A stretch of DNA of 64,000 nucleotides from Thermotoga profunda AZM34c06 (GTDB taxonomy: Bacteria > Thermotogota > Thermotogae > Thermotogales > DSM-5069), in contig NZ_AP014510.1 in NCBI RefSeq assembly GCF_000828675.1, positions 575,413 to 639,412 on the forward strand, written 5' to 3'. The notes under the pieces were generated by a model. It ran no database searches. It was not told the DNA's origin and worked only from the letters and a program-made list of their open reading frames with translations. A program made the translations under genes and the position numbers. Positions 31,337 through 50,255 of the stretch are shown piece after piece. The stretch's first letter is position 1, and each line of letters opens with the position of its first letter.

Positions 31337-31460
31337 AAAAAATAAAAAATCGGTAGTGAAAGTCTCTACCGAAAAGAAATTAGCCCTTGTAGCCAGGACA
31401 GTTTACGGCTGTCCGGTAGAGACTTCCGAGCCCTATTCTCGGAATTATACAAGGGCATTT
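31337..31460 (-). ncRNA. purine (guanine-class) riboswitch with terminator/antiterminator expression platform, leader of the pur operon
   Basis: Minus-strand RNA GCCCUUGUAUAAUUCCGAGAAUAGGGCUCGGAAGUCUCUACCGGACAGCCGUAAACUGUCCUGGCUACAAGGGC matches the B. subtilis xpt G-box almost element by element. P1 is GCCCUUGUA/UACAAGGGC. J1/2 is UAUAAU. P2 and L2 are UCCGAG-AAUAGGGC-CUCGGA. J2/3 is AGUCUCUACC. P3 and L3 are GGACAG-CCGUAAA-CUGUCC. A C immediately precedes the 3' strand of P1 (the guanine-specifying position). Downstream hairpin UCGGUAG-AGACUUUCA-CUACCGA plus UUUUUUAUUUUUU forms an intrinsic terminator. Its 5' arm CGGUAGAGACU is complementary to aptamer J2/3 AGUCUCUACCG (antiterminator). Confidence 0.9.
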
Positions 31461-31582
31461 CCCCGTGGGAGGGAAATATTCACTTGTACAGTTTAATAAT
31501 ATCATGAAGCTTAATCAGAGATATATTTTCAAAATGAATAAAAATACTTTACAAAATTTTGTGCCCAAAGATCTCAACTGTC

Positions 31583-31606: not shown

Positions 31607-32395
31607 TTATTTTGTACTCAATATGCACACAGAGGAGGGTGTATTCAAAAATAATGTGAGACTTTCAGAAATTGAAAATTCAAGTTTCTCTCCAACAGGT
31701 CCTATGAAACCTATTGACATGTCTTGACCGATTATTATCGAAGCGAATACATCTGATTCATGTATGAGAACACCGCAGTCTTTCAAAATGGGAGCTTTAT
31801 AGACATTTTTTACAAAAGCTTTCATGTGCTCGAGTTCAGTTTGATTTCCACTTTCGTATCTCCTGAAGAGCAAGTTATATCTTTCAGGTGATAGAGCCAA
31901 TAGATAAGGACCATGGAAACCCGCTTCATCAAGGCGGGTGACTGCTTCGATCACATTATTAACTGCTTGCCCGACGTTTTTCCAGGACTTCAATTCAACG
32001 CTGAGTACACCGTCTGAATTGAGTAAACCCTTAGAAGATATTCCTTCAAAGATCAATTTATCTTCGATTTTTGCGCATTCTTTTGTAGCTTCGATTAGTG
32101 AAGAAAGATCGATCGTAATTCCTTCTTTTTCATAAGCTGCAAGGTCTCTTTTTGAGATCAGAAAGGTCTTGTGTATATAAGTCAACGGGAGTGTCTTAGA
32201 TGAAAAAACTCCCGGTTCGATCTCGATATCTGCCAAAGATATCTGTTTCAAACCAATGCCAAAAGGTCCTTTTGTTGGAAGAATCTTTCTTCCTGTGAGA
32301 TAACTTTTTGCGATCTCGACCATTGTGTTATTGAAGAGTTGCCAAAGCTCCGGTGATAGTGGTGCATCTTCTTGCATTAAATATTTATTCGCCAT
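31607..32395 (-). CDS. family 1 encapsulin nanocompartment shell protein (HK97-fold, linocin M18-like)
   Basis: 262 aa. Strong similarity to the remembered T. maritima encapsulin: [21 protein letters not shown] vs [33 protein letters not shown] vs [22 protein letters not shown] vs ILGQDLSIGY. The true ATG ([19 protein letters not shown]) lies 1 nt after the cargo gene's TGA. Confidence 0.85.
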   Translation of the reverse strand: [262 protein letters not shown]

Positions 32396-32396
32396 G

Positions 32397-32738
32397 TCAC
32401 TCACCATCCTTGAGAGAACCAACTGTCGGTTCTTCATCGCCTATCTCTTTGATGATATCTTCAACTTCCTTAGCTCCTTGCGCCATGAATTGCGCTTCGT
32501 CTTTCGTGAGTATTTCCAAAAGCTTTGTGAATTCTCCGATGTGAACTCTTTCTTCATTTGCGATCTCGGTGAGTACCTTTTTTGCCAATGGATGATCTGT
32601 TGCATCGGCATGAGATAAATATTGATGAACGGCCTCGTGTTCCGCGGCAATGTTAAGTCTAATAGCCCTGATTAATTCTGTAAGAGTCAACTTTCTCTCG
32701 GGGACTTTGCCACTGAATGGATTAACAAATTCTGGCAT
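32397..32738 (-). CDS. encapsulated ferritin-like protein (EncFtn/Flp) cargo
   Basis: 113 aa. Ferritin-like ExxH motifs (AAEHEAVHQY, NEERVHIGEF). C-terminal GSLK-containing tail fits a family-1 cargo-loading peptide. AGGAGGTG RBS 6 nt before ATG 32738. Translationally coupled to the shell gene. Confidence 0.8.
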   Translation of the reverse strand: MPEFVNPFSGKVPERKLTLTELIRAIRLNIAAEHEAVHQYLSHADATDHPLAKKVLTEIANEERVHIGEFTKLLEILTKDEAQFMAQGAKEVEDIIKEIGDEEPTVGSLKDGE

Positions 32739-32799: not shown

Positions 32800-33603
32800 C
32801 TATTTTTCTTTTAGTATGAATTCAACATTTTTATGCCAAGTGAAAAGTGGGTCAGTGGAAGGAAGAAATTTTCTTTTTTCGTTGCTCACCACCCAGATGT
32901 AATACACTAATGTTCCCGGGGCAGCTACTACTGGATGGTAACCTGTCTTGGTTATAACTGTGTCACCATCTCTTATTACATATGATTCATCGATATTTTT
33001 ATTATAAATCCTTTGTAAAGCAAAGCTGTAGGTTGGTTCTATTCTAAAATGATATAGCTCATCGGCTTTTAGTTCATTTGGAAAATCGTCTATATCGTGT
33101 TTATGAGGTGGCCAACTTGACCAACATCCAGGAAGATTAATCGTCTCACCCACTATTAACCTTTGAGCGGGAACTGAGCTATCAACGACATCTCTCACTA
33201 ACCTTTTCCAGTTTGATTCACCAACGTATTTATTCTTGACTTTTTCAGCAGGTATAAAGTATTCACTTCCAGAATCTATACAAAATGCCTTTGCTACAGC
33301 TATTTCCGAATCGGTTACAGCCTTTATGAGTAAATCAAGGTTTTTGGGTACATAGAGAGCGCTTGGACTGTCGACAAAGACATCTCTTCTGAGATTGGTT
33401 GTGTATTCTTTGCCGTTGACCTTGAAGATCACCTGTCCTTTTATCAATATAAAAACACTCTCTTTTTCTTCTTCCTTGTACATAAAATCCTGCGATTGCT
33501 TCAATAACAACAGGCCGAAGGTTAGGTTATCAAAGATTTCTGTTGAGACAATTTGCTTGTATCCTGTTTCGATGAAAGGTTTTCCGATTATCGTATGATT
33601 CAC
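32800..33603 (-). CDS. kduI: KduI/IolB-family cupin isomerase (5-keto-4-deoxyuronate isomerase-like), paralog 1
   Basis: WSSWPPHKHD...DDFPNE and GYHPVVAAPG motifs of the KduI/IolB family. 267 aa. Confidence 0.7.
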   Translation of the reverse strand: MNHTIIGKPFIETGYKQIVSTEIFDNLTFGLLLLKQSQDFMYKEEEKESVFILIKGQVIFKVNGKEYTTNLRRDVFVDSPSALYVPKNLDLLIKAVTDSEIAVAKAFCIDSGSEYFIPAEKVKNKYVGESNWKRLVRDVVDSSVPAQRLIVGETINLPGCWSSWPPHKHDIDDFPNELKADELYHFRIEPTYSFALQRIYNKNIDESYVIRDGDTVITKTGYHPVVAAPGTLVYYIWVVSNEKRKFLPSTDPLFTWHKNVEFILKEK

Positions 33604-34995
33604 CTACCTTAAAAATCTTGATCCAAGGAACATGGTGAACCATGGTACGTAAGTGACGAGTAGCAAAACGATAATCATCGCTATGTAAAATGGTACGGAA
33701 GCCCTCGTCACCTTTTCGATACTGCATTTACCAATGGCGCAACCGACAAACAGTGTGGTACCAACCGGTGGTGTGCACAAACCAATACCCAAATTGATCA
33801 TCATTATGATGCCAAATTGAATTGGTGACCAACCCAATGAGATAACAATTGGTAAAAAGATTGGAGTTGTTATCAAGATGAGCGGAGCCATATCCATGAT
33901 CATTCCAAGAAACAATAGAATTAGGTTAATCATTAGCATTAAAAGATACTTGTTTGTTGTTACAGATAGCAAACCTCCCGCAACCAGGGCTGGAATCTTA
34001 AGATAAGCGAGTAAGTATCCAAAAGCAGACGAACTTGCAATCACAAACATTACCATCGCAACAATGATAGTTGTGTTTTTAAAAGTCTCCAAGATTTTTT
34101 TGAGATTCATAGTTTTGTACACGAATGTGGTGATTATCAGAGCATAAACTGCCGCTATGACTGATGCTTCTGTTGCTGTGAAAACACCAAATGCTATACC
34201 AAATATGATTATAAGGGCAACAAACAAACCGAGTATGGAATCTCTTGTTATTATCAATGCCTCTTTGAATCCAACCTTACCAGCTTTTGGATAATTTCTC
34301 TTCTTTGAAATGAAATAAGCCACTATCATCTGTGATATTCCAACCATTATACCAGGTATATATCCTGCCATGAACAAAGCACCCACCGATACCCCACCGG
34401 CGGCAAGTGAGTAAATGATCATGTTATGACTCGGAGGTATGATGATACCTTGCGTTGAAGATGTAATCGTCACAGCAACAGAAAAGTCTCTGTCATATCC
34501 TTGATCAACCATCATTGGTATCAAAAATGCACCAATTGAAGAAGTATCAGCAACAGAAGAACCACTCACTCCACCAAAAAACATACTCGCAAGAATGTTT
34601 ACCATGGCAAGTCCGCCACGAACACGACCAATCAATATATTCGAAAATTCCACAATTTTTCTTGCTATCCCACCGTCAGCCATTATCTGTCCTGCCAAAA
34701 TAAAAAAGGGAATTGCGATCAGAGAAAAGGCATTTATTCCGGCACTCATTCTTTGAAACACAACCATTGCAGGCAATTTGAGATAAATTATTGTCAAAAG
34801 CGACGAAATACTCAAACAAAATGCTATTGGCGTGCCCAAAAATAACATCAATGCAAAAGAGGCAAATAAGATTGTAATTGCTGAATTGTCTCGTGAGATA
34901 TGAGAGACAATCGGTAATTTGAGGAAAAACACTAAAATCAAACCAACCAAGAATATAGCTATCCCACCTGTGATCAATCTCAAAGTATTTTTCAT
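33604..34995 (-). CDS. dctM: TRAP transporter large permease DctM
   Basis: Typical DctM multi-TM body. Start moved to ATG 34995 (MKNTLRLITGG), 1 nt after the dctQ stop. The 32-aa N-terminal extension in the ORF track overlaps dctQ. Confidence 0.8.
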   Translation of the reverse strand: MKNTLRLITGGIAIFLVGLILVFFLKLPIVSHISRDNSAITILFASFALMLFLGTPIAFCLSISSLLTIIYLKLPAMVVFQRMSAGINAFSLIAIPFFILAGQIMADGGIARKIVEFSNILIGRVRGGLAMVNILASMFFGGVSGSSVADTSSIGAFLIPMMVDQGYDRDFSVAVTITSSTQGIIIPPSHNMIIYSLAAGGVSVGALFMAGYIPGIMVGISQMIVAYFISKKRNYPKAGKVGFKEALIITRDSILGLFVALIIIFGIAFGVFTATEASVIAAVYALIITTFVYKTMNLKKILETFKNTTIIVAMVMFVIASSSAFGYLLAYLKIPALVAGGLLSVTTNKYLLMLMINLILLFLGMIMDMAPLILITTPIFLPIVISLGWSPIQFGIIMMINLGIGLCTPPVGTTLFVGCAIGKCSIEKVTRASVPFYIAMIIVLLLVTYVPWFTMFLGSRFLR

Positions 34996-35474
34996 CGTTT
35001 TTCTCCCCCAAAGATATCGATAATTATTCTTATGATCACACTGAAAACGACCAGTATCCCACATATCGCTGCCGGTAGATACATCCACCACACTGGTATT
35101 CCGGTAGCTGCCATTCTATTAGGCAATCTCTTGACGAGTAAAAAAGTGTAATAGGACATTCCTACACCAAAAGATGCTATGAGTAAAAGGATGCAAGTGT
35201 CAATGATTTTACAAATTAATTTGGGGAAAATGTTGATAAAAACTTCAACTCTGACATGAATACCCGTTCTAACGCCAACACCTGCACCAAGCATTGAAAT
35301 CCATATCAATGTTATCAAGGCGATTTCCTCGGTCCACATAGGAGGCTTGTTGAAAACATATCTCGCAATCACCTGGTAAAAGACAATGCCCGTCGTGAAA
35401 AAAAGAGCAATCGCTGAAAACCATAGAACAGTTTTATTGATCAAATCGAAAATTTTGTTGAGTACTTTTCTCAT
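34992..35474 (-). CDS. dctQ: TRAP transporter small permease DctQ
   Basis: 160 aa, four TM segments, directly between dctP and dctM. Confidence 0.8.
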   Translation of the reverse strand: MRKVLNKIFDLINKTVLWFSAIALFFTTGIVFYQVIARYVFNKPPMWTEEIALITLIWISMLGAGVGVRTGIHVRVEVFINIFPKLICKIIDTCILLLIASFGVGMSYYTFLLVKRLPNRMAATGIPVWWMYLPAAICGILVVFSVIIRIIIDIFGGEKR

Positions 35475-35517
35475 TTAATTCACCTCAACTATGGGCGCCC
35501 GAAGGCGCCCATCTTTT

Positions 35518-36480
35518 TCATTTAGTTGCCTGGATTTTTTGGATCAATTCTTTGTATTGTGGATATTTATCATACATCGACTGAACGGCTTTTTGGAATG
35601 CGGAAACATCGGGAACAAAGACCTGTGCTCCTGCCTTCTTAACTGCTTCGAGAGCCGATTCTTCCCATTGATTCCACAGGAGTCTCTCATATTGTACAGA
35701 AGCAATTGCGGCTGTTTTGAAGATGAGTTTTTCCTCGGCTGTGAGTTTATCCCAGAAGGCTTTATTGATGAGCACTATCTCGGGTATTCTCGTGTGACCA
35801 TCTAAACAATAATATGGAGCGACTTCAAAGTGCCTGAATTCATAGTATGAAGGTGGATTATTTTCAGCACCGTCGACAATTCCAGTTTGGATAGCCGTGT
35901 ATATCTCTTCTGGTCCCATCGGTACACCGGTGGCACCAAGCGCACCCATTAGAGCGATCATTATGGCATTTTGCTGGACTCTTATTTTCATTCCTTTTAG
36001 ATCTTCAGGTTTTTGAACAGGTTTTTTCGTGTAAAAGCTTCTTGCACCTGCGTCGTAATAGCACAATCCTATCAATCCTATTTTCTCCATGTCTTTCAGG
36101 AGCTGTTCGCCTACTGGCCCTTCCAAAACTTTCCAATAATGTTCTGCATCTCTAAAAAGGTAAGGCATGGCATATACACCAATTGGGTCGTAGAATGGCT
36201 GTAATGGAGCGACAGACACTCTCGCAATATGAATTGCTCCCATGATGGTTTGTTCGATGACCTCTTTCTCTGAACCAAGCTGTCCGCCTACATATACTTC
36301 GATCTTGTACTTTCCATTAGTCATCAGTTCAATAGTCTTACCCATCATTTTAATTGCTTCAACTGTTGGATACCCCTCGTTGTGTACGTCAGATGCCTTT
36401 AAGACAATAGGTGCACAGAAAGTCACCAGAACAAAAGATACCAAGATTGCAAAAACGAAAAACTTTCTCACCTCTAACAC
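35518..36480 (-). CDS. dctP: TRAP transporter substrate-binding protein DctP
   Basis: Signal peptide plus a DctP-family periplasmic binding domain. 320 aa. Confidence 0.8.
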   Translation of the reverse strand: MLEVRKFFVFAILVSFVLVTFCAPIVLKASDVHNEGYPTVEAIKMMGKTIELMTNGKYKIEVYVGGQLGSEKEVIEQTIMGAIHIARVSVAPLQPFYDPIGVYAMPYLFRDAEHYWKVLEGPVGEQLLKDMEKIGLIGLCYYDAGARSFYTKKPVQKPEDLKGMKIRVQQNAIMIALMGALGATGVPMGPEEIYTAIQTGIVDGAENNPPSYYEFRHFEVAPYYCLDGHTRIPEIVLINKAFWDKLTAEEKLIFKTAAIASVQYERLLWNQWEESALEAVKKAGAQVFVPDVSAFQKAVQSMYDKYPQYKELIQKIQATK

Positions 36481-36544
36481 CTCCCTTGAGTGGTGGTTTT
36501 TCCAAAAGACTTTTTTGAATTGATTTAATTTCTCACCCCCTCAC

Positions 36545-37294
36545 TTAGCGGTGATTACACCCCAATTTTTTTGATATTTTCTCGGCACACTCAACAACCT
36601 TTTTTGAAAAATTCTCGATGGTATCGTCCAATAATACCGACACCGCACCAGATATGCTGACAGCGGCTATAGGGTAACATTCATGGTTCAATATGGCAGC
36701 TCCTATACACCTTATACCGATTTCACTTTCTTCGTCATCTATTGCATATCCACTCTGCCTGATTTTGCTGATTTCTTTGCGAAGTTGTTCGGCATCTGTT
36801 ATTGTCTTCTCGGTTCTTTTTGTTAGTTTTACTGTTCTTAAGTATTCTTCGAATTCTTTATCGGGTAAATAAGCCAAAATTGCTTTGCCAGCCGAAGTGG
36901 AATAGAACGGTGCACGCATACCAATCTTTGAAACCATGGGGATGCTGTTAATTCCTTCGACTTTATCGAGATAAACCCCCTCAAATCCATCTTTGATTAT
37001 CAAATGAACTGTCTGACCAGTTTTTGCCATCAAATCCACCAGATCTTTGTGTGCGATATCTCTGATATCGAATTTTCTGAGGATGATTGAGCTGTATTCC
37101 AGTAATTTGAATCCAGGATAATACATCTTGTCATTGTGTCTTGTGAGATAACCGCATTCTGTAAAAACAGCTAAATATTTACATGCATTGGAAATACTCA
37201 TGGAAAATTTCTTAGATATCTCACTTGCAGTTACACCATTTGGAGCTTTTACAATATAATCGAGTATTTCTAAACCTCTTTTGAGTGTGTGCAA
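36545..37294 (-). CDS. IclR-family transcriptional regulator (KdgR-like)
   Basis: N-terminal wHTH (LEILDYIV...GVTASEISKKFSMS) and a C-terminal IclR effector domain. 249 aa. Sits inside the uronate cluster. Confidence 0.75.
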   Translation of the reverse strand: MHTLKRGLEILDYIVKAPNGVTASEISKKFSMSISNACKYLAVFTECGYLTRHNDKMYYPGFKLLEYSSIILRKFDIRDIAHKDLVDLMAKTGQTVHLIIKDGFEGVYLDKVEGINSIPMVSKIGMRAPFYSTSAGKAILAYLPDKEFEEYLRTVKLTKRTEKTITDAEQLRKEISKIRQSGYAIDDEESEIGIRCIGAAILNHECYPIAAVSISGAVSVLLDDTIENFSKKVVECAEKISKKLGCNHR

Positions 37295-37297
37295 GGT

Positions 37298-37636
37298 CTA
37301 ATCTCCCTTCTTCAGAAAATCCTCTCTGATCGGTGTGAAAACATCGACGAGGATACCGTCGGTTATTGCTTCTACCCAATGTGGTACATTTGGCGGAATA
37401 TAGATACTATGTCCTTGTTTCACTTCGTATCGCTTATCATCAATGATGTATGTGAAATCACCCTTGACAACATAAGATAACTGTTCGTGTTTGTGTGAAT
37501 GTGGATCACTTGCTGTACCTTTTTTGAAAAAGACCTGGGTCATCATCAGAGATCCACCCCAAGCTAAAACACACATTTCAATTCCTTCCTTGACCTTTCT
37601 TTTTTGCACCTCGTTGACATTGACGATATTCTTCAT
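37298..37636 (-). CDS. cupin-2 domain protein
   Basis: 112 aa single cupin with metal-binding His residues (PHSHKHEQ...H). Confidence 0.6.
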   Translation of the reverse strand: MKNIVNVNEVQKRKVKEGIEMCVLAWGGSLMMTQVFFKKGTASDPHSHKHEQLSYVVKGDFTYIIDDKRYEVKQGHSIYIPPNVPHWVEAITDGILVDVFTPIREDFLKKGD

Positions 37637-38409
37637 CTACACAACCACCCTCCATCTACAGGAATCACTGCACCAGTGATGTAATCAGATGCCGAACTTG
37701 CTAAGAAGACAACCACTCCCTTCAAATCCTGTGGGTCACCCCACCTTCCCATGGGAATCCTTGAAAGAATCTCTTTGTTTCTGTTTTCATCCATTCTCAA
37801 GGGTTCGGTATTCTTTGTCGCCATATACCCTGGCGCTATGGCATTCACATTTATCCCATATGGTGCCAATTCATTTGCAAAGATTCTTGTCAATCCTACA
37901 ATTCCATGTTTTGAAACTGTGTATGCCGTTGTGAAGATACCACCTTGAAATGACAACATCGAGGCGATGTTGATTATCTTTCCCTTTACCTTTCTCTCTA
38001 TCACATGCTGGGCAAATTTTTGCGATAGCAAGAAAACCGATTTAAGGTTTACAGTCATTACTTCGTCCCAATCTTTTTCGCTGTATTGTGTTACAGGTGC
38101 TCTGCGAATTATCCCGGCATTGTTGATCAGAATATCGACTTTGCCAAATTTCTCGATTGACTTTTCAATAACTGAATGAGTCTTGGTTGAATCTCTTAAA
38201 TCTATTGTTAATTCTAAATATTCTCTACCGAGTTTCTCTATGATTTTTTTGGTCTCTATCTGATCAGAAGAGCTACTCACACCGATTATGTTTGCACCTG
38301 CTTCGGCTAATGCAATAGCCATAGCCTGACCAAGTCCACGTGAGGCTCCAGTTACTATAGCGACCTTTCCTGACAAAGAAAAACTCTCCAGGACACTCAT
38401 TTTTGCCAC
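37633..38409 (-). CDS. kduD: 2-dehydro-3-deoxy-D-gluconate 5-dehydrogenase (SDR)
   Basis: Collinear with E. coli KduD as recalled: GKVAIVTGASRGLGQAMAIALAEAGANIIGV, KIINIASMLSFQGG, NVNAIAPGYMATKNT, FLASSASDYITG...VDGGWL. Confidence 0.85.
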   Translation of the reverse strand: MAKMSVLESFSLSGKVAIVTGASRGLGQAMAIALAEAGANIIGVSSSSDQIETKKIIEKLGREYLELTIDLRDSTKTHSVIEKSIEKFGKVDILINNAGIIRRAPVTQYSEKDWDEVMTVNLKSVFLLSQKFAQHVIERKVKGKIINIASMLSFQGGIFTTAYTVSKHGIVGLTRIFANELAPYGINVNAIAPGYMATKNTEPLRMDENRNKEILSRIPMGRWGDPQDLKGVVVFLASSASDYITGAVIPVDGGWLCR

Positions 38410-38412
38410 CTC

Positions 38413-39255
38413 TCAAACCGAAAGATTGTTCTCTATATTTCTGATCATGTTAGTAGCCAGGTCTACAAACCTCAGATCTGGATCGACGTATGGTGCTTGG
38501 ACTCTCTTTGGACCAGCCAAGAACCACAAATAATACACGGTGAAACCAGGCGCAGCAACAACTGTGTGATACCCTTTTGGCATTAAGTGGAGTGTGTTGT
38601 CTTCTACTACATAGCAAGCGTTCATATCTCTTGAATCGGTGTAATGTCTCGCGAGTCCAAAGCCTTTTGGATGATCAGTTTTGTAAAAATAAATTTCTTC
38701 CAAGTAGCTTTCCTCTGGAAGGTTATCGTTTTCATGCCTATGTGGTGGGTACGTTGACCAGTTCCCAGATGGGGTGAAAGTTTCGCCTATCATCAATTTC
38801 ACCGCCGGATGAGTTTGATCGACGGCTATTTGGTGATATACCCTTGAATAGTTAGAAATGCCCCATTTTCCTGAAGCAACCTCTTCTGGTTTTATCAAAT
38901 ATGGTTCTATTAAGCACTCCTCATCGACTTTTGCTTTTGCCAATGCAACTTCTACACCCTCTTGTTGATTTGTTCGAATGGTGAAAGAAGATTTCGGTGG
39001 TATGTAAACTGAAAAAGGTTTGCCTTGAAATACATTTTTCCTTCCACCTATGTTTTTGAATTCTCTGTCTTTGACAGAAACATCACATCTTCCAGAAAGA
39101 ATGACTAAGAAGATCTCGAAATCTTTGCTTTCCGAGCTGTATTCTTGTGAAGAAGATAATAAAATTCTTTCAAAGCCAAGGTAACGCATTCCATTCTCAT
39201 TCGGTTCACACTTGAATATTTTTTCCTGTTTTGGAAGATGTAAGAAGTACTGCAT
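38413..39255 (-). CDS. kduI: KduI/IolB-family cupin isomerase, paralog 2
   Basis: WSTYPPHRHEND.LPEE.YLEEIYFY and GYHTVVAAPG. Start set at ATG 39255 (MQYFLH), which has a GGGGTGAT RBS. The ORF-track start at 39342 has none. Confidence 0.7.
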   Translation of the reverse strand: MQYFLHLPKQEKIFKCEPNENGMRYLGFERILLSSSQEYSSESKDFEIFLVILSGRCDVSVKDREFKNIGGRKNVFQGKPFSVYIPPKSSFTIRTNQQEGVEVALAKAKVDEECLIEPYLIKPEEVASGKWGISNYSRVYHQIAVDQTHPAVKLMIGETFTPSGNWSTYPPHRHENDNLPEESYLEEIYFYKTDHPKGFGLARHYTDSRDMNACYVVEDNTLHLMPKGYHTVVAAPGFTVYYLWFLAGPKRVQAPYVDPDLRFVDLATNMIRNIENNLSV

Positions 39256-39309
39256 GTTGATCACCCCGCTTTTATTTTGTGAAAGTAGCTTTCTTTTTAT
39301 GACACTACA

Positions 39310-39331
39310 GATAGTGTAATGATTTCTTATC
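39310..39331. promoter_or_regulatory. candidate Fur-box-like imperfect palindrome in the kduI2 / mbfA-like divergent region
   Basis: GATAGTGTAATGATTTCTTATC is dyad-symmetric at GATA...TATC and AATGATT/AATCATT. It resembles the GATAATGATAATCATTATC ferric-uptake-regulator consensus. It lies about 145 nt upstream of the ferritin-VIT gene. Confidence 0.25.
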
Positions 39332-39477
39332 GTCAATGTCAAATTCGGAAAAATTCGATGAACGTTGAAAATACGCCGAAAGATCTCGTATGTTGGATTT
39401 TATTAGGAAAAATCTTTTTAGATCTCTTGTTTGCTCTCTTTTTCTAAGATATACTATTGTAAAAAGGAGGAAAGAAT

Positions 39478-40314
39478 GTGCTAACTGAATTTCAAAGAAA
39501 TGAAATCACCGAACACGTTGTTTATAAAATACTTGCCAAGCATGATAAATCTGAGAATTCAAAGATCTTAAGCAGGATATCTCAAGAAGAGCTCTCACAC
39601 TACGAAAGGATTCGTTCATTGACTAAGGTTGATGTGAAGCCAAATTGGTTCAAGGTCTTTTGGTATGTTGTCCTTGCAAGAATTCTTGGGTTGACTTTCG
39701 CATTGAAATTAATGGAAAGAGGAGAGGAAAAAGCCCAAAAGAATTATTCATCGGCTCAAGAAAATCTGTTTAGAGAATTAATCAGCGATGAAAAGGATCA
39801 TGAAGAGGAGTTACTTAAATTGATAGACGAAGAGAAACTCGATTATATAGGCTCGATGGTCCTTGGATTGAACGACGCGCTTGTTGAACTGACCGGAGCA
39901 CTTGCTGGTTTGACTTTGGCGATACAAAAGACATCGATCGTAGCTCTTTCTGGAATAATCACTGGTATAGCAGCTGCCCTTTCTATGGCTGCATCTGATT
40001 ATCTGTCCAGAAAATCAGAAGGTGGCGAGAAAAAACCACTCAAATCTGCTTTATATACGGGAGTTGCCTATATATTCACCGTTTTATTTTTAACATTTCC
40101 TTATCTTTTGTTCAATAATCCATTCGTTGCGCTATCTTTGACGGTTATAAATGCGATCTTTGTGATTTTCATCTTTACCTTTTTTGTGTCTGTTGTGAAA
40201 GACCAGAGTTTTAGGAGAAATTTCTTGGAAATGTTTTCAATAAGTATAGGGGTGGCGGCAGTTTCATTTTTCATAGGTCTTTTTGTCAGAAAGTTCTTTA
40301 ACATCGATATTTGA
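39478..40314 (+). CDS. membrane-bound ferritin-like/VIT1 fusion protein (MbfA/CCC1-like Fe/Mn transporter)
   Basis: N-terminal erythrin/ferritin-like domain with ExxH (ITEHVVY, QEELSHYERI). C-terminal VIT1 domain (GSMVLGLNDALVELTGALAG, multiple TM). GTG start 8 nt after AGGAGG. Confidence 0.75.
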   Translation: MLTEFQRNEITEHVVYKILAKHDKSENSKILSRISQEELSHYERIRSLTKVDVKPNWFKVFWYVVLARILGLTFALKLMERGEEKAQKNYSSAQENLFRELISDEKDHEEELLKLIDEEKLDYIGSMVLGLNDALVELTGALAGLTLAIQKTSIVALSGIITGIAAALSMAASDYLSRKSEGGEKKPLKSALYTGVAYIFTVLFLTFPYLLFNNPFVALSLTVINAIFVIFIFTFFVSVVKDQSFRRNFLEMFSISIGVAAVSFFIGLFVRKFFNIDI

Positions 40315-41682
40315 CACAGTTTTGTCCTCAGATTGATCGATCTTGCTTTGCCTTTCTTGAACAAAAGCGATCATGTTCTCGTAAAACAATTTCATTTCCT
40401 GTTCAGATAGATTTTTTCGCGCGTATCTCAATCTTACATACACATCTGTTGCAACAGAAAGATTTTCTTGATTTTCAGCAATTTTGAGTATTTCAATTGG
40501 TGTTAAGTGATGATATTGGGCGAAGTATTTTCTTCTCAACCACCAATAAGCACCAAGGATGAATTTCTCGCTCGGTTCATATTCAGGAATAACCTCAATG
40601 GGATAGAGTTCGATATCTTTCGGTATATTTCCTTCTGCATTTTGTTCATGGTATGTTTTTAATCGCAAGCCTTTGAGTAATGAATAAATCAGAGTGATAA
40701 TCATCAATAAAAGAGCCAACATACTTATAATATCGAGTATCAGTGTTACGTTCATCTTTGATTGCTTTGTTTGTGAGTTCTCGATTACAATCGTAGCTGT
40801 ACTCGACGGTTGATAAAATTGCTGACTTTGTCCTGTTTTTTCCTCGTATTGAAAAGTTTCTTGAATGGTATTCTCAGATGGCTTGATGAATCTGAAAAAG
40901 AGCGACAAAGAGCATATGGCAATTGTAAAGGTCAGTATTCCAAGCATGAGTAATTTTAGTGTTCCTCTTACGCCAAAATTGCTAATAGAAAAGGTAAACA
41001 GTAATGATCCAAAGAGAATGAGTACCGCTGGAAACCATATCTTGTCTATGAAATCCGTCAAAAAACTCTTTTTTGAGTTCTGGGATCTTTCAGATGGCTG
41101 CATTAGAATGACCTGTTCCTCTTGTTGCTCCTTTTGGGTTTGTTGTTCTTGATGTGCGGGGATCAACGACAAGATTGGTTTGAGTGGAACAAAATCGATT
41201 CGCGAAAAGACTGTGGCAACTATTAGGATTGATAGTATGTATACTAAGGCGATTTTGAGGTTTAAAAGTTTTGACTTGTTCAAATACCATGTTCCCAGCA
41301 GGAACCCAAAAAATAAAAGATCGGCAACCGTTCCATGTGGCTTTGCCAAGCTTAGGTACACACCAAGAAAGATCAAAGAAAATACAGAAGACAGTCCACT
41401 TGAAACGAATATCATAATGAGCGCCGTTGCTACAAGAGTGAACATCACGGAGGTGAAAAATTCTATTTTGATAATGCCAGCCAATACGAAGTTAATGATT
41501 AAGATAGCAGGAAAGATGAAGATCATTGAACAACCCAGATCCGAGACCAAAAGAATAAATGAAAACACCATCAGACCAGCGAGTACCAGAGTTGCCCAGA
41601 TCGGTAATGAACTGAACAGATAAAAGCCCATCAATACGAGTAAGGCAACAGTTAGCAGTTTTTCAAAAGCCTTGAATTTCAT
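40264..41682 (-). CDS. polytopic membrane protein with a C-terminal DUF4129-like domain (MoxR-system partner)
   Basis: 472 aa with about 8 predicted TM helices and a soluble C-terminus (WWLRRKYF...TPIEIL). Last gene of the MoxR-DUF58 operon. Its 3' end overlaps the convergent mbfA-like gene by about 51 nt. Confidence 0.5.
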   Translation of the reverse strand: MKFKAFEKLLTVALLVLMGFYLFSSLPIWATLVLAGLMVFSFILLVSDLGCSMIFIFPAILIINFVLAGIIKIEFFTSVMFTLVATALIMIFVSSGLSSVFSLIFLGVYLSLAKPHGTVADLLFFGFLLGTWYLNKSKLLNLKIALVYILSILIVATVFSRIDFVPLKPILSLIPAHQEQQTQKEQQEEQVILMQPSERSQNSKKSFLTDFIDKIWFPAVLILFGSLLFTFSISNFGVRGTLKLLMLGILTFTIAICSLSLFFRFIKPSENTIQETFQYEEKTGQSQQFYQPSSTATIVIENSQTKQSKMNVTLILDIISMLALLLMIITLIYSLLKGLRLKTYHEQNAEGNIPKDIELYPIEVIPEYEPSEKFILGAYWWLRRKYFAQYHHLTPIEILKIAENQENLSVATDVYVRLRYARKNLSEQEMKLFYENMIAFVQERQSKIDQSEDKTVSNIDVKELSDKKTYEK

Positions 41683-42943
41683 CGAATACCTCCTGCAATG
41701 TTTGACTTGGTTTAACTATCCTGATAATTATCTGCTCTTTTTCGAGTAATCTTGCCCTTTCATTTAATCTTTGCATGTCCAATGGATACATTTCATATGT
41801 TCTTGTCGGTTTATATCTCGGGTCTCTAAATCCATACGGGATTAAAAGTACAATCACTCGAGAAACCTTTGCCCTTGCATTAATCAATAATGGGAGCAAT
41901 GAGTCAGTTAGGTACATGGATATTATCACCAAAGTATTTGATGGATTCAGAACATATAGATCTTTGGCTAATTCATCGGCGAGTTGTGGTCCATTTTCAT
42001 CGCCCTCTGCCATCGCGAGAAGTTCTACTGCGTTTACCCAATCGGAAGTAGAGCCGTAGTTTCTTCTCAAGACCTCTCTTGCTACAACAACGATGTCTAT
42101 GAAATTCCCTTGTTGTGTCAACCAATAAATAATTGATGATGTTGCAAGTACTGCTTCTTCTTCGTAATTTTTCCTTATCTGTGCCCAGACATTCTTTGCG
42201 AAAATATCTTTTGATAGATTCAGATCCAGATAAATTATGGTATTACTGACGGCAGTGAAATCGAGTTCTTTGACATACAGTTCACCCAATTTGGCTGATA
42301 TCTTCCAATGGATCTTATTCAAAGGTTCGTTGGAGTATTCTCTAACACCTTTTATCTGTGTTGTATCTTCGAGTAATTTGAAGTCTGATCTGATCCCTGG
42401 GAGGAGTTCTCTGAGTCGTGATGGAAAGGATTCCAGGTACATTATTTTCGGTAAGACGAGTATCTGTTGTTCAGCAGAGTAATGAGCCCAGTGCTTGAAA
42501 AATCCGAGCGGATGTTCGTAAACAACGACAAGATCGGTGAGAACCTTTTTGCCTCTGGTTGAGAAAGTTGTCTTGGCTTGCAAGATAATTGGTTGTGATT
42601 TTTGTAAATGTACAGGTTGATCTAAAAGGTTATAGGTCAAAAGACCGGCGACTTTTATCTGTGACAGGATATTTATGTTCATATTTCCCGAGGAACAACA
42701 GAGCCTATGGTGAATTATCACATCTTCATTTGTGAAAGATCGTGTTCTGTTAGCCCACCTTTCAATATCAAGGTTGCCTATCTTTTGTTTTGTCGAGAAA
42801 TAATTGAACCATAAGAAACCACAGCAAATACACAAAATTACCGAAAAACCATTGAAATTTGCCAAAAGCCAAAGCGCAGACAAAGTTGTGAACAAAGAGA
42901 GTATGCCACTCGAAGAAGAGATTTTTTGTAGTTTAAGTTTCAC
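41663..42943 (-). CDS. DUF58 domain protein (vWA-like, MoxR partner)
   Basis: 426 aa with two N-terminal TM helices and the DUF58 core around IKGVREYSNEPLNKIHWK. Overlaps moxR by 11 nt. Confidence 0.7.
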   Translation of the reverse strand: MKLKLQKISSSSGILSLFTTLSALWLLANFNGFSVILCICCGFLWFNYFSTKQKIGNLDIERWANRTRSFTNEDVIIHHRLCCSSGNMNINILSQIKVAGLLTYNLLDQPVHLQKSQPIILQAKTTFSTRGKKVLTDLVVVYEHPLGFFKHWAHYSAEQQILVLPKIMYLESFPSRLRELLPGIRSDFKLLEDTTQIKGVREYSNEPLNKIHWKISAKLGELYVKELDFTAVSNTIIYLDLNLSKDIFAKNVWAQIRKNYEEEAVLATSSIIYWLTQQGNFIDIVVVAREVLRRNYGSTSDWVNAVELLAMAEGDENGPQLADELAKDLYVLNPSNTLVIISMYLTDSLLPLLINARAKVSRVIVLLIPYGFRDPRYKPTRTYEMYPLDMQRLNERARLLEKEQIIIRIVKPSQTLQEVFDEIQGF

Positions 42944-43880
42944 TCTTTATCGGTGCCTCCTCTGTTTGAAGAATATAGTTGAGTATTTCTTGCTTGGTTT
43001 TTCTCATGAGTCTTGCTTCAGGTTTTAAGATTATCCTGTGTGCCAGTACATCTATCACTATCTCTTTGACGTCATCTGGCAAGACATAATCTCTACCCCT
43101 CAAACCAGCCAGAGATCTTGAGATTTCCATAAGAGCGATAGCACCCCTTGGACTTGCACCAAGGGCTATGTCCTCGTGTTCTCTGGTTCTTGAAACAATT
43201 CTTATTATGTAATCCAATATGGAGTCGTCAATGTAAATCTGTTTGACATTTTGTTTGGCTTCATCGAGTTCTTGTATATCACAAACAGGTTTCAGTGAAT
43301 CTATAGGATGAATTTTCTCGAGTTTGCGAAGCATTCTCATCTCGTCATCTCTACCAAGATAGCCGAGTGACACGCAGATGGAAAATCTATCGAGTTGTGC
43401 TTCAGGTAAAGGAAAGGTTCCTTCGAATTCCACAGGATTTTGCGTTGCTATTACAAAAAAGTGCTTACTCAATGAATAGGTGGTTCCGTCAACTGTAACT
43501 TGTCTCTCTGCCATAGCTTGAAGCAATGCCGACTGTGTTCGTGGAGTTGCCCTATTTATCTCATCTGCAAGAAGGATATCGGTGAAAATAGGACCTTTTT
43601 TGAAAACAAATTCGTTGTGTCTGACGTCCAAGATATTCAATCCCGTTATATCAGATGGTAACAAGTCTGGTGTGCATTGGACTCTGTTGAAATTCAAACC
43701 TACGGAAACAGATAGAGCCCTTGCGAGCATAGTCTTACCAACACCAGGAACATCGTTCAAAAGTACATGTCCGTCACTGAGCATAGAGGCTAATATTTTT
43801 TCCACGACGGTCTCTTTTCCAACGATCACCTTTGAGACGTTCTCGATTATCTTTCTCGCGAAATTCTCCAGAATTGCCAT
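42933..43880 (-). CDS. MoxR-family AAA+ ATPase
   Basis: Walker A LLNDVPGVGKT and Walker B ILLADEINRA. 315 aa. Confidence 0.85.
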   Translation of the reverse strand: MAILENFARKIIENVSKVIVGKETVVEKILASMLSDGHVLLNDVPGVGKTMLARALSVSVGLNFNRVQCTPDLLPSDITGLNILDVRHNEFVFKKGPIFTDILLADEINRATPRTQSALLQAMAERQVTVDGTTYSLSKHFFVIATQNPVEFEGTFPLPEAQLDRFSICVSLGYLGRDDEMRMLRKLEKIHPIDSLKPVCDIQELDEAKQNVKQIYIDDSILDYIIRIVSRTREHEDIALGASPRGAIALMEISRSLAGLRGRDYVLPDDVKEIVIDVLAHRIILKPEARLMRKTKQEILNYILQTEEAPIKSET

Positions 43881-44503
43881 TTGTGATTCCTCCTGTTATC
43901 CAAATTCGTTGGCTGTGATATCAATTTACCAACTGATCTGTACGCAGTTGCCTCTTTGCCAATAGATTCCTTGTTTCGATAATCGTGTTTTTTGATGAAT
44001 ATTGACAGTTGATCTTTCAGATAGTTCAATTTCTCAGTCTGAATTTCCTTAAAACGATCTTTTGTAGTATCATTCAATAATCTGTATATCTTGCCGAAAT
44101 GATATAGACAAAAAACTGAATCGCTTTGTGAAAAGAGTATCATACCATCAGTTTCACTGAGGATTTTACCAAAGGAACTTGTGTAAACTTCCTCGAGTTG
44201 AGACTCATGATTGCACAAATAGCAGCTACACGAGTATATATCTGATTCATTTTGTTTTATGGTTTTCAATTTGTGGTCGAGTATGTCTTCGTATATAATC
44301 GCTATACCTAACAGTCCAAGTTCAGGATGATGATGGAGGTATCTCTCGATAATTTCTACGTGTTTTCTACACAATCCCATGGTTCTCAAGTTCGATCTGA
44401 CTTGAGGGTCATTGACGAGCTCATACAAGATAGTGTCTATGAGTTTTTCCATGCTTTCATTGATCAATTTGCAAATAGGACAAGATTGATCTTTCTCAGA
44501 CAT
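43847..44503 (-). CDS. Cys-rich hypothetical protein, first gene of the MoxR operon
   Basis: 218 aa from ATG 44503 (MSEKDQSCPICK...). Motifs CPIC, CRKH and CSCYLCNH suggest metal binding. The 31 extra N-terminal residues in the ORF track are a terminator hairpin read as protein. Confidence 0.5.
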   Translation of the reverse strand: MSEKDQSCPICKLINESMEKLIDTILYELVNDPQVRSNLRTMGLCRKHVEIIERYLHHHPELGLLGIAIIYEDILDHKLKTIKQNESDIYSCSCYLCNHESQLEEVYTSSFGKILSETDGMILFSQSDSVFCLYHFGKIYRLLNDTTKDRFKEIQTEKLNYLKDQLSIFIKKHDYRNKESIGKEATAYRSVGKLISQPTNLDNRRNHKWQFWRISRER

Positions 44504-44557
44504 GATATCGATAATCTTGATTTCCACAAAATCTCTTGGTTTCAAATCTCTCACCTC

Positions 44558-44593
44558 GAAAAGAAAAAAACTCCTACTCTTTCGAGTAGGAGT
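44558..44593 (-). terminator. intrinsic terminator downstream of the GH38 mannosidase gene
   Basis: Minus-strand ACUCCUACUC-gaaa-GAGUAGGAGU hairpin followed by UUUUUUUCUUUUC, about 50 nt after the stop at 44645. Confidence 0.75.
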
Positions 44594-44644
44594 CATCAGC
44601 CTCTATGGGCAAGTATGGCAGACCCCATTGCCAAAATCATTATA

Positions 44645-47104
44645 TCATATTTTTATCAACCAACTTCGAACATTTTTGAGTTTTTCCTCTGGTTTAATTG
44701 GCTTTTCGGCGAGATTAACCTCGATTATCTCCTTAGATCGATATTTGATCTTTGGCTCATTTCCTTGTGGGTCGAAAGCTCGAATTATCACACCTTCACC
44801 ATTTTCAGAAGGTTTGAGAGTATTCAAGAAACCTCTTTCTATCTCCAGTTCTATCTTTGGAAGCTTTTCAAACTTTCCCTGGACTGCTATAGGTGGTATT
44901 TGATAATTTCTAACACTTCTATAGACATCTTCGATATTCCATTTGTCATGGAGGATAATCGAAAACTCGGCAACATGTTCGCCAATTCCCTGAGCTTCAG
45001 GTGTTCTAATACCAGGACCGGCATGATCTGGTCTTGTGACAAGATCGTTTCTTGAAAGCCACTCTACACATCTGAGCAAGGTTATCTTTAAACCATCGTG
45101 ATCGACCCGCACCTCCCTGAGTCCTTTTGTTGAGATCGTCACGCCAATCTCGGGAAGCGTCGCAAACCAGTACATTGCAAAATTGTTATCTGGCAATTCT
45201 GCCCATTTTGAATAATCCTCATCAAAATTTTCTATTGTATGTTCTACAGGGCCAAAATATCCATCGGTGATGAGTTTTGAAAGATTTTTGAATGGAAAGA
45301 CAATGGATAATCTGTGATCTTTTACGTAATTAATGAACTGGATTTTCACATCTATTCTTGGTGTGTCTCTGTAAAATGTATATTCGATTTCAAATGGTAA
45401 ATCTACCAATTTCTCTGAACGTTTTTTTCTGTTTATGGCTATTGATTCTGGTATTTGCATAGTATTTGTGACAACTATCTTCTTCATAAAAGATGAATCA
45501 ATGCAATTATTGATAGTGGCATTGGTTTTAAGTGAATTGAAAATCTCTTTTGATACCCAGCTGTAATTGTACTCATCACCGATATCTTCTACATCTTCAA
45601 GATAGCACAGATTTTCAAAAGTTCTTTCTTTGCATTTCAATGTTAAAGTTCCATTTTCGTTTACCCGATGAGGCTGATCGAAAGATCCATTTTTTCCTTT
45701 CGAACGAACTATGTTGATAGTTTTGAAAGAAAGACTTGGTGCTGAAACGTTCAGAAAGCATCTGTATGTTTTTCTCTGGTCATTCTCAATAGCTTTTGTA
45801 GTATTACTTTCGAAAAATCTTATTAGTGTACTCATATCATTTTGTAAATCTTCTGCAGATTCTATTATGACCGTTTCTATTTCATTTCCATCTTCATCGA
45901 TGAATTTATATTCACCCTCTTCCAATTTTGCACAAACTTCAACAACGCCTTGGAAATTGCTTTCAAGTGGGTTAAAGAGTGTGATACCCATATCATCAAC
46001 GCGTTTATCGACAATTTCAAGAAAAGTTTTTGCAAATAAAGCCCTCCCATGGTCTATCGCATTCTTCAGTCTTACTTGTATGACTTTGTGTACAGCGTCA
46101 ATACTACATCCACAGATACTGTCGTGTGGTTGACACTGTAGAATTTGTTTCCACCCGTACCAGATAGAATTAACTGGAGTTGGATTACCTGTTATTCTCG
46201 AGATGGCAAGAATCGGTTCCAAATAATGAATGTAGAATTTCTCAGCTTGGTAATGCAATATCTTTTCCCAGATTCTTGTCGAAGTCACGTCCTTCAATAC
46301 CGGAACGATTCTTGGCGATCTCAATTCTCCAGTAATATGAGATCGAGGTCTTTCAAGTTCTGCGACGTATTGCTCAAATCCAGCATGAACGAATTTAATT
46401 TCGTTTGTAGAGATTTCCTCAAGAATTTTACCTATATTGAAATAAGGAATCTCATGATCTGTCCCATTCATTAAAAGCGGTGGATTGTGCGAGGATATGT
46501 TTGAAAGTTTCTCTGATTCTTCGATCAATTTTCTTTTCAGTGCTTGCTCATTGATGCCAAAGTGTGCTGCATTCGAATAACTGTGAATGAGATAAATTGC
46601 ATCTACTTGATCACCAAAAGGTGTTGACCAAATAAATGTTGCATCTTCGAGTTTATCAACGCCGCGCCATATGACAGCCCACCTCAATCCAAGTCCTTTA
46701 ACTACTGTTGGCATATATGCGTTATGCCCAAACATATCTGGCAGATAGGCAATGTTTGAAAGTTTCACACCGTATCTTTCGGCAATTTTCTCGCTGTAGA
46801 GATAGTTTCTAACCCAAGATTCTGAAGCTACGAGAAACTCATCTGGCAGTACATACCATGGACCAACGCTGATCTTGCCATTTCTTATTAGATCGAGAAA
46901 ATCCTGTCTTATACCCATAGTTTCTTCGGAATCTTCGAGTACAATCGTTTGCCCGTCTAAGTGGAAATGCTTGAACGAATCATCTTTTTTCATATGATCA
47001 GTGAGTTTCTCGAGTAAGAGTGTCAATCTTTCTCTGAAAATTTCAAAAGTTGTGTACCATTCTCTATCCCAATGTGTGTGAGTCACTACAAAAGCCTTTT
47101 TCAA
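44645..47104 (-). CDS. GH38 alpha-mannosidase
   Basis: N-terminal HTHWDREW motif and a length of 819 aa fit bacterial GH38 enzymes. Confidence 0.85.
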   Translation of the reverse strand: MKKAFVVTHTHWDREWYTTFEIFRERLTLLLEKLTDHMKKDDSFKHFHLDGQTIVLEDSEETMGIRQDFLDLIRNGKISVGPWYVLPDEFLVASESWVRNYLYSEKIAERYGVKLSNIAYLPDMFGHNAYMPTVVKGLGLRWAVIWRGVDKLEDATFIWSTPFGDQVDAIYLIHSYSNAAHFGINEQALKRKLIEESEKLSNISSHNPPLLMNGTDHEIPYFNIGKILEEISTNEIKFVHAGFEQYVAELERPRSHITGELRSPRIVPVLKDVTSTRIWEKILHYQAEKFYIHYLEPILAISRITGNPTPVNSIWYGWKQILQCQPHDSICGCSIDAVHKVIQVRLKNAIDHGRALFAKTFLEIVDKRVDDMGITLFNPLESNFQGVVEVCAKLEEGEYKFIDEDGNEIETVIIESAEDLQNDMSTLIRFFESNTTKAIENDQRKTYRCFLNVSAPSLSFKTINIVRSKGKNGSFDQPHRVNENGTLTLKCKERTFENLCYLEDVEDIGDEYNYSWVSKEIFNSLKTNATINNCIDSSFMKKIVVTNTMQIPESIAINRKKRSEKLVDLPFEIEYTFYRDTPRIDVKIQFINYVKDHRLSIVFPFKNLSKLITDGYFGPVEHTIENFDEDYSKWAELPDNNFAMYWFATLPEIGVTISTKGLREVRVDHDGLKITLLRCVEWLSRNDLVTRPDHAGPGIRTPEAQGIGEHVAEFSIILHDKWNIEDVYRSVRNYQIPPIAVQGKFEKLPKIELEIERGFLNTLKPSENGEGVIIRAFDPQGNEPKIKYRSKEIIEVNLAEKPIKPEEKLKNVRSWLIKI

Positions 47105-47106
47105 AA

Positions 47107-49420: not shown

Positions 49421-49433
49421 GGTACAACCTCCT

Positions 49434-50255
49434 TCAACCTTTGATGCCGCCGTAGAATGAGAAACCGAATTTTCGCTCAACGATAAAGTACATAACTATG
49501 ACTGGTGTTGTGTAAAGTAATGCGTATGCGGATATCATACCTATATCGGGTACACCAACTTCGGTGAAAAATGTATATATAGCTATGGAAACCGGGTATT
49601 TTGTATGTGACCTTAATAAAACAAAAGGAATTAGAAAATTACTCCAAGATTGAGCAAAAACAAGCATAGCTACTACAATTATTCCCTTGCTTGAGAGTGG
49701 TAAAAAGATTTTAAACATGACTTGTAAGGGTGAGCTTCCATCGACAAGTGCTGCTTCTTCAAAGGTCCTCGGGATCGAGTCGAAAAAATCTCTCAGGATG
49801 AATATCGACGTTGGTAACATACCACCTGCGATTGTCAGAATAACTCCGAGCTCCTTGTTTATCAAACCAAGTCTTAGATTCAGCATGAATATTGGAACCA
49901 TTGCTGCTACACCAGTGACTATGCTCGAAAAAAGAACCAAAACATACAACAAGACATCTCTGCCTTTAAAATAATGCCTCGAGAGAACATAAGCTGCAAA
50001 AAGTGCACATACAGTGACGAGTAATACCACACCCACGGAAATGATCAGACTGTTCTTGAATGCATTGATCGCTGTCTTGTTATGAAAGACTCTTACAAAA
50101 TTATTCAATGTTGGAGTTGAGATCGATATGAACAATGATGGCCTCGAGCTAAATGGTGTCACTAACAACCATAAGATGGGCGCAACGAAAAAAGCCAATA
50201 TAGGTGTAAGTATTATATAATTCGTGATTTTACTCATTCTTCTGGGGTCCTTCAT
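49434..50255 (-). CDS. carbohydrate ABC transporter permease (MalG/UgpE-like)
   Basis: 273 aa, six TM helices, EAA-loop region (FDSIPRTFEEAALVDG). Confidence 0.8.
   Translation of the reverse strand: MKDPRRMSKITNYIILTPILAFFVAPILWLLVTPFSSRPSLFISISTPTLNNFVRVFHNKTAINAFKNSLIISVGVVLLVTVCALFAAYVLSRHYFKGRDVLLYVLVLFSSIVTGVAAMVPIFMLNLRLGLINKELGVILTIAGGMLPTSIFILRDFFDSIPRTFEEAALVDGSSPLQVMFKIFLPLSSKGIIVVAMLVFAQSWSNFLIPFVLLRSHTKYPVSIAIYTFFTEVGVPDIGMISAYALLYTTPVIVMYFIVERKFGFSFYGGIKG

Follow-up and report, generated by a model that had tools for sequence, protein, structure and literature searches.

An operon of eight co-directional genes occupies positions 39255 to 32800, head to tail on the minus strand, of the 64,000-nucleotide stretch analysed here, from the hot-spring bacterium Thermotoga (Pseudothermotoga) profunda AZM34c06 ("the window"; contig NZ_AP014510.1, positions 575,413 to 639,412). 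The genes specify, in order, an IolB-type bicupin (isomerase 1), KduD, a KdgF-like cupin of 112 amino acids, an IclR-family regulator, the DctP, DctQ and DctM components of a tripartite ATP-independent periplasmic (TRAP) transporter, and a second IolB-type bicupin (isomerase 2). The cluster is a real and conserved uronate operon of ordinary purpose; what is non-standard is the presence of cupins from the IolB branch where KduI is expected. As a whole it is best explained, with a probability of roughly 0.6, as one uronate-scavenging operon made of two modules. Module A (isomerase 1, KduD, KdgF and IclR) would convert 4,5-unsaturated monouronate to 2-keto-3-deoxygluconate (KDG): KdgF would open the ring to give 5-keto-4-deoxyuronate (DKI, also abbreviated DHU), isomerase 1 would carry out the conversion to 3-deoxy-D-glycero-2,5-hexodiulosonate (DKII) that is normally the task of canonical KduI, and KduD would reduce DKII to KDG, which would pass on to KdgK and KdgA encoded elsewhere. 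In module B the TRAP transporter would take up free uronate monomers and isomerase 2, co-translated with it, would act on the sugar acid taken up, most likely by turning a saturated hexuronate (galacturonate or glucuronate) into the keto-uronate, which would feed a UxaE/UxaD-type route elsewhere. An earlier reading of the letters (the sequence-only reading) had described a uronate-type catabolic cluster with KduD between two KduI/IolB paralogs, a small cupin, a TRAP transporter and an IclR regulator. All eight genes were found where it had placed them, and Pfam and NCBIfam assign them unambiguously.

KduD and the small cupin fix the metabolic setting. KduD scores 384.9 against the equivalog model TIGR01832 (cut-off 338.85), has 57% identity with E. 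coli KduD along its full length (253 amino acids) and matches PDB entry 4z9y with an E-value of 2e-92; it is a genuine KduD, collinear with the E. coli protein, and it anchors the cluster as had been proposed. The 112-residue cupin had been counted as an unplaced extra. It is present, but its PDB matches and its Asp and Arg residues make it, by sequence, a homologue of KdgF, a known enzyme of the pathway: the matches are to 7zyb (BeKdgF of Bacteroides eggerthii; E-value=6e-22) and to 5fpx, 5fpz and 5fq0 (KdgF of Yersinia and Halomonas; about 2e-12), the cupin metal motif consists of H46, H48 and H86, and in an ungapped alignment D98 and R104 correspond to Asp102 and Arg108 of BeKdgF. In PMC11381880 these two residues are the ones put forward as catalysing and stabilising the step that opens the 4,5-unsaturated monouronate ring, and opening of this ring to DKI is the predicted function of the window protein. 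With the KdgF proteins of Yersinia enterocolitica, Halomonas sp. and B. eggerthii it has in common a size of about 110 residues, a single cupin domain, an Asp/Arg pair aligned with the proposed catalytic residues and a position next to kduD; it differs in coming from a thermophile of the Thermotogota. Since KdgF and KduD are both present, the cluster is placed in unsaturated-uronate metabolism.

The two large cupins are both full-length members of PF04962 (KduI/IolB), with 252.6 bits for isomerase 1 (E-value=5e-75) and 213.4 bits for isomerase 2 against a cut-off of 23.9. They are 32% identical over 234 residues, in keeping with the earlier description of two clearly diverged paralogs of 280 and 267 residues. 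The metal-ligand set His, His, Glu and His expected of KduI is present as H172, H174, E187 and H230, with no variation in the two proteins or their relatives. To judge from their sequences, the two are neither canonical KduI enzymes nor true IolB proteins. BLASTP against E. coli KduI gave an alignment of only 74 amino acids around the metal motif (28% identity, E-value=4e-4); phmmer against the PDB returned no KduI for either protein, finding only 2qjv (the IolB-like STM4420); the family profile reached 1xru (E. coli KduI) only at an E-value of 0.0018; and in the NCBIfam scan neither large cupin matched a KduI model. The AlphaFold model of isomerase 1 (predicted local distance difference test score 89.2) matches the fold of 2qjv with a template modelling (TM) score of 0.88 at 29% identity, and the KduI structures 7yrs and 1xru with scores of about 0.66. 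Canonical kduI-kduD(-kdgF) clusters, such as those of Dickeya, E. coli and Lacticaseibacillus (PMC12838403), have in common with the window the pathway logic, KduD, a KdgF-type cupin, KDG as the product and the adjacency of the isomerase and reductase genes. The window differs in having an isomerase from the IolB branch of PF04962 that is no orthologue of KduI and that has twelve residues between the HxH motif and the glutamate (HxH-x12-E), as has its paralog, where KduI has four.

IolB, KduI and UxaC all catalyse C1/C2 aldose-ketose isomerisation, in each case of a six-carbon uronate. The window cupins fall with IolB in one subfamily by sequence and fold, and a T. profunda protein 100% identical to isomerase 1 is named "5-deoxy-glucuronate isomerase" at NCBI; it could accordingly be held that the annotation is right and that one or both cupins are IolB, serving myo-inositol catabolism. 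Isomerase 1 does pass the IolB equivalog model TIGR04378 with 236.4 bits (cut-off 205), and its best solved relative is the IolB-like 2qjv. However, isomerase 2 reaches only 170 bits, below the cut-off, whereas the IolB of a verified iolJ-G-B-C-A-D-E operon in the Bacillus cereus group (L086) reaches 368.4. The residues R131, V159 and N244, invariant in the clade linked to iol genes, are replaced in both paralogs, and no iolC, iolD, iolE, iolG or iolJ occurs in the scanned window (the Pfam scan left out about 6 kb at the two ends, namely 1-2193, 62530-64000 and the open reading frames (ORFs) 20837-21298 and 62817-63335). An inositol role is, with the clade evidence that follows, very improbable. 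The NCBI name arises because the TIGR04378 score lies just above the cut-off, and it is probably wrong.

A scan of species-representative genomes gave at least 80 loci, which were labelled by tblastn with reference proteins and by their same-strand ORF sets. The reference proteins were a uronate set from the window and from loci L010, L011 and L020, an iol set from L086, and E. coli KduI and KduD. In a neighbour-joining tree of 325 family members (100 bootstraps) isomerase 1 belongs to a 141-member clade with a bootstrap of 100, which occurs in Thermotogota, Bipolaricaulota, Chloroflexota and Actinomycetota, and isomerase 2 to a 12-member clade with a bootstrap of 75. A separate clade of 51 members (bootstrap 84) has iolC, iolD or iolE in 48 of its loci, and both window paralogs lie outside it, which speaks against the suggestion that one of them is an IolB-type 5-deoxy-glucuronate isomerase. 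The phylogeny thus separates the two paralogs into different clades; they are not recent duplicates with identical active-site residues.

The neighbourhoods of the isomerase-1 clade are those of a uronate pathway. A KduD homologue of 54-64% identity is adjacent in 18 of 21 sampled loci, and neither iolC, iolD or iolE nor a canonical KduI was found within 10 kb in any of the 21. As a check free of reference proteins, the 119 same-strand ORFs within 3.8 kb of these genes were scanned with Pfam. They include 14 short-chain dehydrogenases/reductases (SDR), 13 unsaturated-uronyl hydrolases of glycoside hydrolase (GH) families 88/105, six PfkB kinases, five 2-keto-3-deoxy-6-phosphogluconate aldolases, three UxaC, three GH28 and two oligogalacturonate lyases, together with 10 ATP-binding cassette (ABC) permeases; none of the 119 belongs to the IolD or IolE families. 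The gene order is IclR-DctPQM-isomerase-KduD-KdgA-KdgK in L010, IclR-isomerase-KduD-KdgK-DctPQM in L009 (Bipolaricaulota), and GH88-isomerase-KduD followed by a UxaC-UxaE fusion in L020. Isomerase 1 is probably the equivalent of KduI for the DKI-to-DKII step, and on the basis of gene context it is most likely that its clade supplies this step in place of KduI. The fused UxaC-UxaE protein of L020 (13067-16000; a Chloroflexota locus) measures 977 amino acids and is found in L013 and L015 as well, beside GH88-isomerase-KduD.

The searchable literature yielded no paper tying IolB-type proteins to kduD, and in a 2025 survey covering isomerase-reductase clusters the only isomerases considered are KduI and DhuI, which is not homologous to it (PMC12838403). 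Surveys that count only these two enzymes would score organisms with the isomerase-1 clade as lacking the isomerase step, and metabolic reconstructions would wrongly credit the same organisms with a step of the inositol pathway. The clade is widespread and probably mis-annotated: it bears the public name of an inositol enzyme, and its neighbourhoods place it in the catabolism of pectin and unsaturated uronates. If the proposed roles are true, the IolB-type cupins would add a third way of isomerising DKI, and perhaps a second way of carrying out the UxaC reaction, and they would offer thermostable enzymes for pectin and uronate conversion. The known chemistry of the pathway is unchanged, and the importance of the finding is modest.

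The close relatives of isomerase 2 (96, 77 and 68% identical) are all from Pseudothermotoga and all lie directly after dctM, a position that is fixed in three lineages of the genus; the next relatives have at most 50% identity. A metagenome scan with isomerase 2 alone gave one distant locus (L094, 28% identity), and 10 loci from other PF04962 lineages had no coherent context and say nothing on this protein. In its clade are the genes of L011 and L099, two unrelated contigs, in both of which the gene precedes uxaE-uxaD. L011 carries a beta-glucuronidase-like GH2, Gnd, the isomerase, UxaE, a D-mannonate oxidoreductase and a LarA homologue resembling hexonate epimerase (GntE-like); L099 carries a ROK regulator, DctPQM, the isomerase, UxaE, an SDR, a gene like 6-phosphogluconate dehydrogenase, a LarA-like gene and a phosphofructokinase. 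These gene sets match the type of the galacturonate route gnd-uxaE-uxaD-gntE of T. maritima (PMC3750489). The step missing from clusters of the L011/L099 type is the uronate isomerase, and the gene of the isomerase-2 type occupies that place. The uronate-isomerase reaction is also that of IolB, there with a 5-deoxy substrate, and a published report credits E. coli KduI with facilitating the conversion of hexuronates (PMC3578941). A hexuronate isomerase is, from these neighbourhoods, a tentative assignment for isomerase 2, to be given somewhat less than even chances; more doubtful is the wider proposal that the whole clade consists of cupin-type hexuronate isomerases converting galacturonate or glucuronate to tagaturonate or fructuronate, with a structure unlike that of the amidohydrolase-fold UxaC. 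If true, PF04962 would cover three uronate specificities, namely 5-deoxy-glucuronate (IolB), DKI (KduI and the KduD-linked IolB-type clade) and ordinary hexuronates, and the P. profunda operon would encode separate isomerases for the unsaturated and the saturated monomers of uronate.

The closest relatives of isomerase 2 outside Pseudothermotoga (46-50% identity) are on three archaeal-type contigs, L012, L097 and L098, and fall within the same 12-member clade. There the isomerase gene stands alone between a TauE-like permease and either endonuclease V or riboflavin genes, on contigs that encode a class I lysyl-tRNA synthetase as well as a CTP-dependent riboflavin kinase.

That the two isomerases have different substrates had been proposed from the sequence. 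[quoted passage not shown] It is also conceivable that both large cupins are DKI-to-DKII isomerases, isomerase 2 being redundant or adapted to another condition (for example with its own optimum of temperature, metal or affinity). Each is a PF04962 protein with a complete set of metal ligands, encoded in one operon with KduD and KdgF, and the clade of isomerase 2 has G157, T159 and W244 in common with the KduD-linked clade (V, V and N in true IolB). There is a precedent for two KduI paralogs in one organism, PDB titles naming a KduI1 and a KduI2 of Bacteroides ovatus (9kcz, 9kd0) and a "ketol-isomerase 1" of E. faecalis, and P. profunda already has a UxaC. Against this, genes of the second type adjoin UxaE and mannonate oxidoreductase outside Pseudothermotoga, not KduD; the loci of the KduD-linked clade carry one isomerase only; and the paralogs, at 32% identity, differ in clade-specific residues. 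Position 131 is W in the KduD-linked clade, an invariant R in IolB and V, its own residue, in the isomerase-2 clade, and position 231 is T in isomerase 1 and P, as in IolB, in isomerase 2. Two isomerases for DKI are, on balance, less likely than not, but the reading is a serious competitor.

A further arrangement would make the two cupins subunits of one hetero-oligomeric isomerase. They are always together in the Pseudothermotoga operon, and enzymes of the KduI family are oligomeric, that of L. rhamnosus being a hexamer (PMC10792219). Each type occurs alone in other lineages, however, and a distance of 5 kb separates the two genes, one at either end of the operon, so that such a complex is hardly to be expected.

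The explanation in terms of two modules, preferred here, draws also on the transporter. All three TRAP components are present (PF03480, PF04290 and PF06808). The best PDB matches of DctP have E-values of 3e-79 to 2e-71 and include 4x8r, 4n8y and 4mhf, for which PMC11668362 and PMC7660916 give as ligands glucuronate, galacturonate, and both glucuronate and galacturonate, respectively. The KDG-binding protein 7bbr scores far lower (1.5e-41), as do the binders of sialic acid and C4-dicarboxylates. DctP is thus predicted to be of the hexuronate type, being most similar to glucuronate- and galacturonate-binding proteins, and, with KdgF and a transporter of monomer size, the operon has the look of a system that scavenges free monomers of uronate. 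The idea that a TRAP system here unusually replaces ABC or phosphotransferase uptake does not hold, UxaPQM-type systems having been described in Thermotoga (PMC3750489) and hexuronate-binding TRAP proteins being known from solved structures (PMC7660916, PMC11668362). The window TRAP is orthologous to that of L099 (DctP 67% and DctM 73% identical), whereas in L009 and L010, where the TRAP genes adjoin an isomerase of the first type, identity to it is no more than 26-27%; the operon therefore resembles two modules that have been joined. The 43-nucleotide spacer between dctP and dctQ contains a perfect GC-rich hairpin (Table 1), possibly an attenuator or an RNA-stability element setting the ratio of DctP to DctQM.

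The nearest well-described system is the hexuronate network of T. maritima (uxaC-kdgR(TM0065); gnd-uxaR-uxaE-uxaD-gntE-gntK; PMC3750489), which has a TM0065-like regulator in common with the window. Relatives of isomerase 2 sit in operons of its uxaE-uxaD-gntE-gnd type, and sister species of T. maritima possess a uxaPQM TRAP, the window likewise having a TRAP uronate transporter (PMC3750489). The differences are that in T. maritima the isomerase step is performed by UxaC, of amidohydrolase fold, that descriptions of those regulons include no kduD, kdgF or IolB-type gene, and that the IclR gene of the window is embedded in a kduD-type operon.

The IclR protein had been called KdgR-like. It is a close homologue of TM0065 of T. 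maritima (PDB 1mkm; E-value=4.9e-91 over the full length), which is annotated as kdgR and predicted to respond to KDG and to control uxaC (PMC3750489), but on the E. coli KdgR model it scores 140.7, below the cut-off of 275. This TM0065-like protein probably represses at the promoter upstream of isomerase 1 and would respond to an intermediate of the pathway. The best promoter-like site lies there, with a -35 element conserved in L002 and L095; the number of such sites in the region is not above that in shuffled sequence. A search for operators gave one candidate, a palindrome overlapping the -10 hexamer and largely retained in L095 as AGACTATTGGTAGTGT, and found nothing in the spacer between iclR and dctP.

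Several points weigh against the two-module explanation. All functional claims, from every substrate to the role of isomerase 2 and the regulation, derive from homology and gene neighbourhood, while gene identities, family placements and conserved neighbourhoods were observed directly. The loci are a sample, and the tree is a neighbour-joining tree of top-match sequences with unresolved deep nodes. The scanned window contains no lyase or GH88/105 that would make unsaturated monomers and, by Pfam matches, no kdgK or kdgA, the last as the sequence-only reading had stated. The palindrome pattern (6-4-6) is not above chance and is a candidate operator only. For isomerase 2 there are two informative foreign contexts, L011 and L099, and no sugar genes near its relatives in L012, L097 and L098. 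Finally, a canonical UxaC (P0315, 63% identical to TM0064) is encoded elsewhere in P. profunda. Isomerase 2 is thus not needed to fill a UxaC gap, a role that was considered and rejected, and the hexuronate hypothesis is kept for its neighbourhood evidence only.

Table 1. Features of the uronate operon, with positions counted from the first letter of the window
Feature	Position	Strand	Remarks
Promoter-like site, TTGACA-18-TACACT	39313..39342	-	upstream of isomerase 1; 10/12 matches
Palindrome ACACTA-N4-TAGTGT, candidate IclR operator	39302..39317		overlaps -10 hexamer
Isomerase 1, IolB-type bicupin, 280 amino acids from ATG	38413..39255	-	ORF extendable to 39342
KduD, 2-dehydro-3-deoxy-D-gluconate 5-dehydrogenase	37633..38400	-	TIGR01832; identity to E. 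coli KduD
KdgF-like small cupin, 112 amino acids	37298..37636	-	Cupin_2, E-value=3.9e-17; PDB KdgF matches
IclR-family regulator	36545..37294	-	HTH_IclR and IclR_C
DctP, TRAP solute-binding protein, predicted hexuronate type	35518..36471	-	PF03480, E-value=7e-80
Perfect GC-rich hairpin, ATGGGCGCC-TTCG-GGCGCCCAT, 9-bp stem	35491..35512		in dctP-dctQ spacer
DctQ, TRAP small membrane subunit	34992..35474	-	PF04290, E-value=6e-28
DctM, TRAP large membrane subunit, 463 amino acids	33604..34995	-	PF06808, E-value=3e-119; TIGR00786, 427.7 (cut-off 268)
Isomerase 2, IolB-type bicupin, 267 amino acids	32800..33603	-	PF04962, E-value=4.8e-63

The spacing between the operon genes ranges from a 4-nucleotide overlap to 73 nucleotides. 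Isomerase 1 stops 12 nucleotides ahead of the kduD start, the start of the KdgF-like gene overlaps the kduD stop by 4 nucleotides, and isomerase 2, 4 kb distant from kduD, abuts the stop of dctM with zero gap. The eight-gene order was found again in near-identical public contigs, and it is kept in L095, a Pseudothermotoga contig of about 80% identity, between the same VIT1 and encapsulin neighbours. Directly downstream in the window are the genes for an encapsulin-associated ferritin-like cargo protein (32397-32738) and a family-1 encapsulin shell (31607-32437), both on the minus strand. The gap to the cargo gene is 61 nucleotides, and no terminator-like site was found after isomerase 2. Directly upstream, and divergent, is a VIT1 iron transporter with a ferritin-like domain (39478-40314, plus strand). 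The sugar operon thus lies between two iron-handling loci, in L095 as in the window.

Beyond the encapsulin genes a purine riboswitch (RF00167, 76.8 bits; 31370-31472, minus strand) precedes purE and the purE-C-S-Q-L-F-M-N-H-D operon (about 31338 to 21183), and it marks the downstream limit for any read-through from the encapsulin genes. The only PfkB gene of the window, at 17077-17979, was considered as kdgK and rejected; with a TIGR02152 score of 324 (cut-off 300) it is a ribokinase. It is followed, within 15412-17979 on the minus strand, by a 332-amino-acid protein matching neither Pfam nor NCBIfam and by a haloacid dehalogenase-type phosphatase, the genes overlapping as if in one operon.

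On the other side of the uronate operon a fluoride riboswitch (RF01734, 43.7 bits with a gathering score of 34; 44580-44641, minus strand) lies directly upstream of a DUF6062 gene, after which come a bpMoxR-type AAA ATPase and two proteins of 426 and 472 amino acids with no Pfam match (minus-strand genes 43847-44596, 42933-43880, 41663-42943 and 40264-41682). This set is unlike the usual crcB/eriC cargo. Just upstream of the riboswitch, the 9,041 bp from 44650 to 53690 are missing from the otherwise 99.9% identical public contig SRR32929653_2820. The segment encodes a mannosylglycerate-hydrolase-like GH38, a metallohydrolase of the CehA/McbA polymerase and histidinol phosphatase (PHP) type, a MalK-type ATPase and two permeases, as well as a sugar-binding protein and a regulatory protein that joins a GntR helix-turn-helix to a sensor domain of LacI type; it has the appearance of a sugar island that varies between strains and was inserted at this point.

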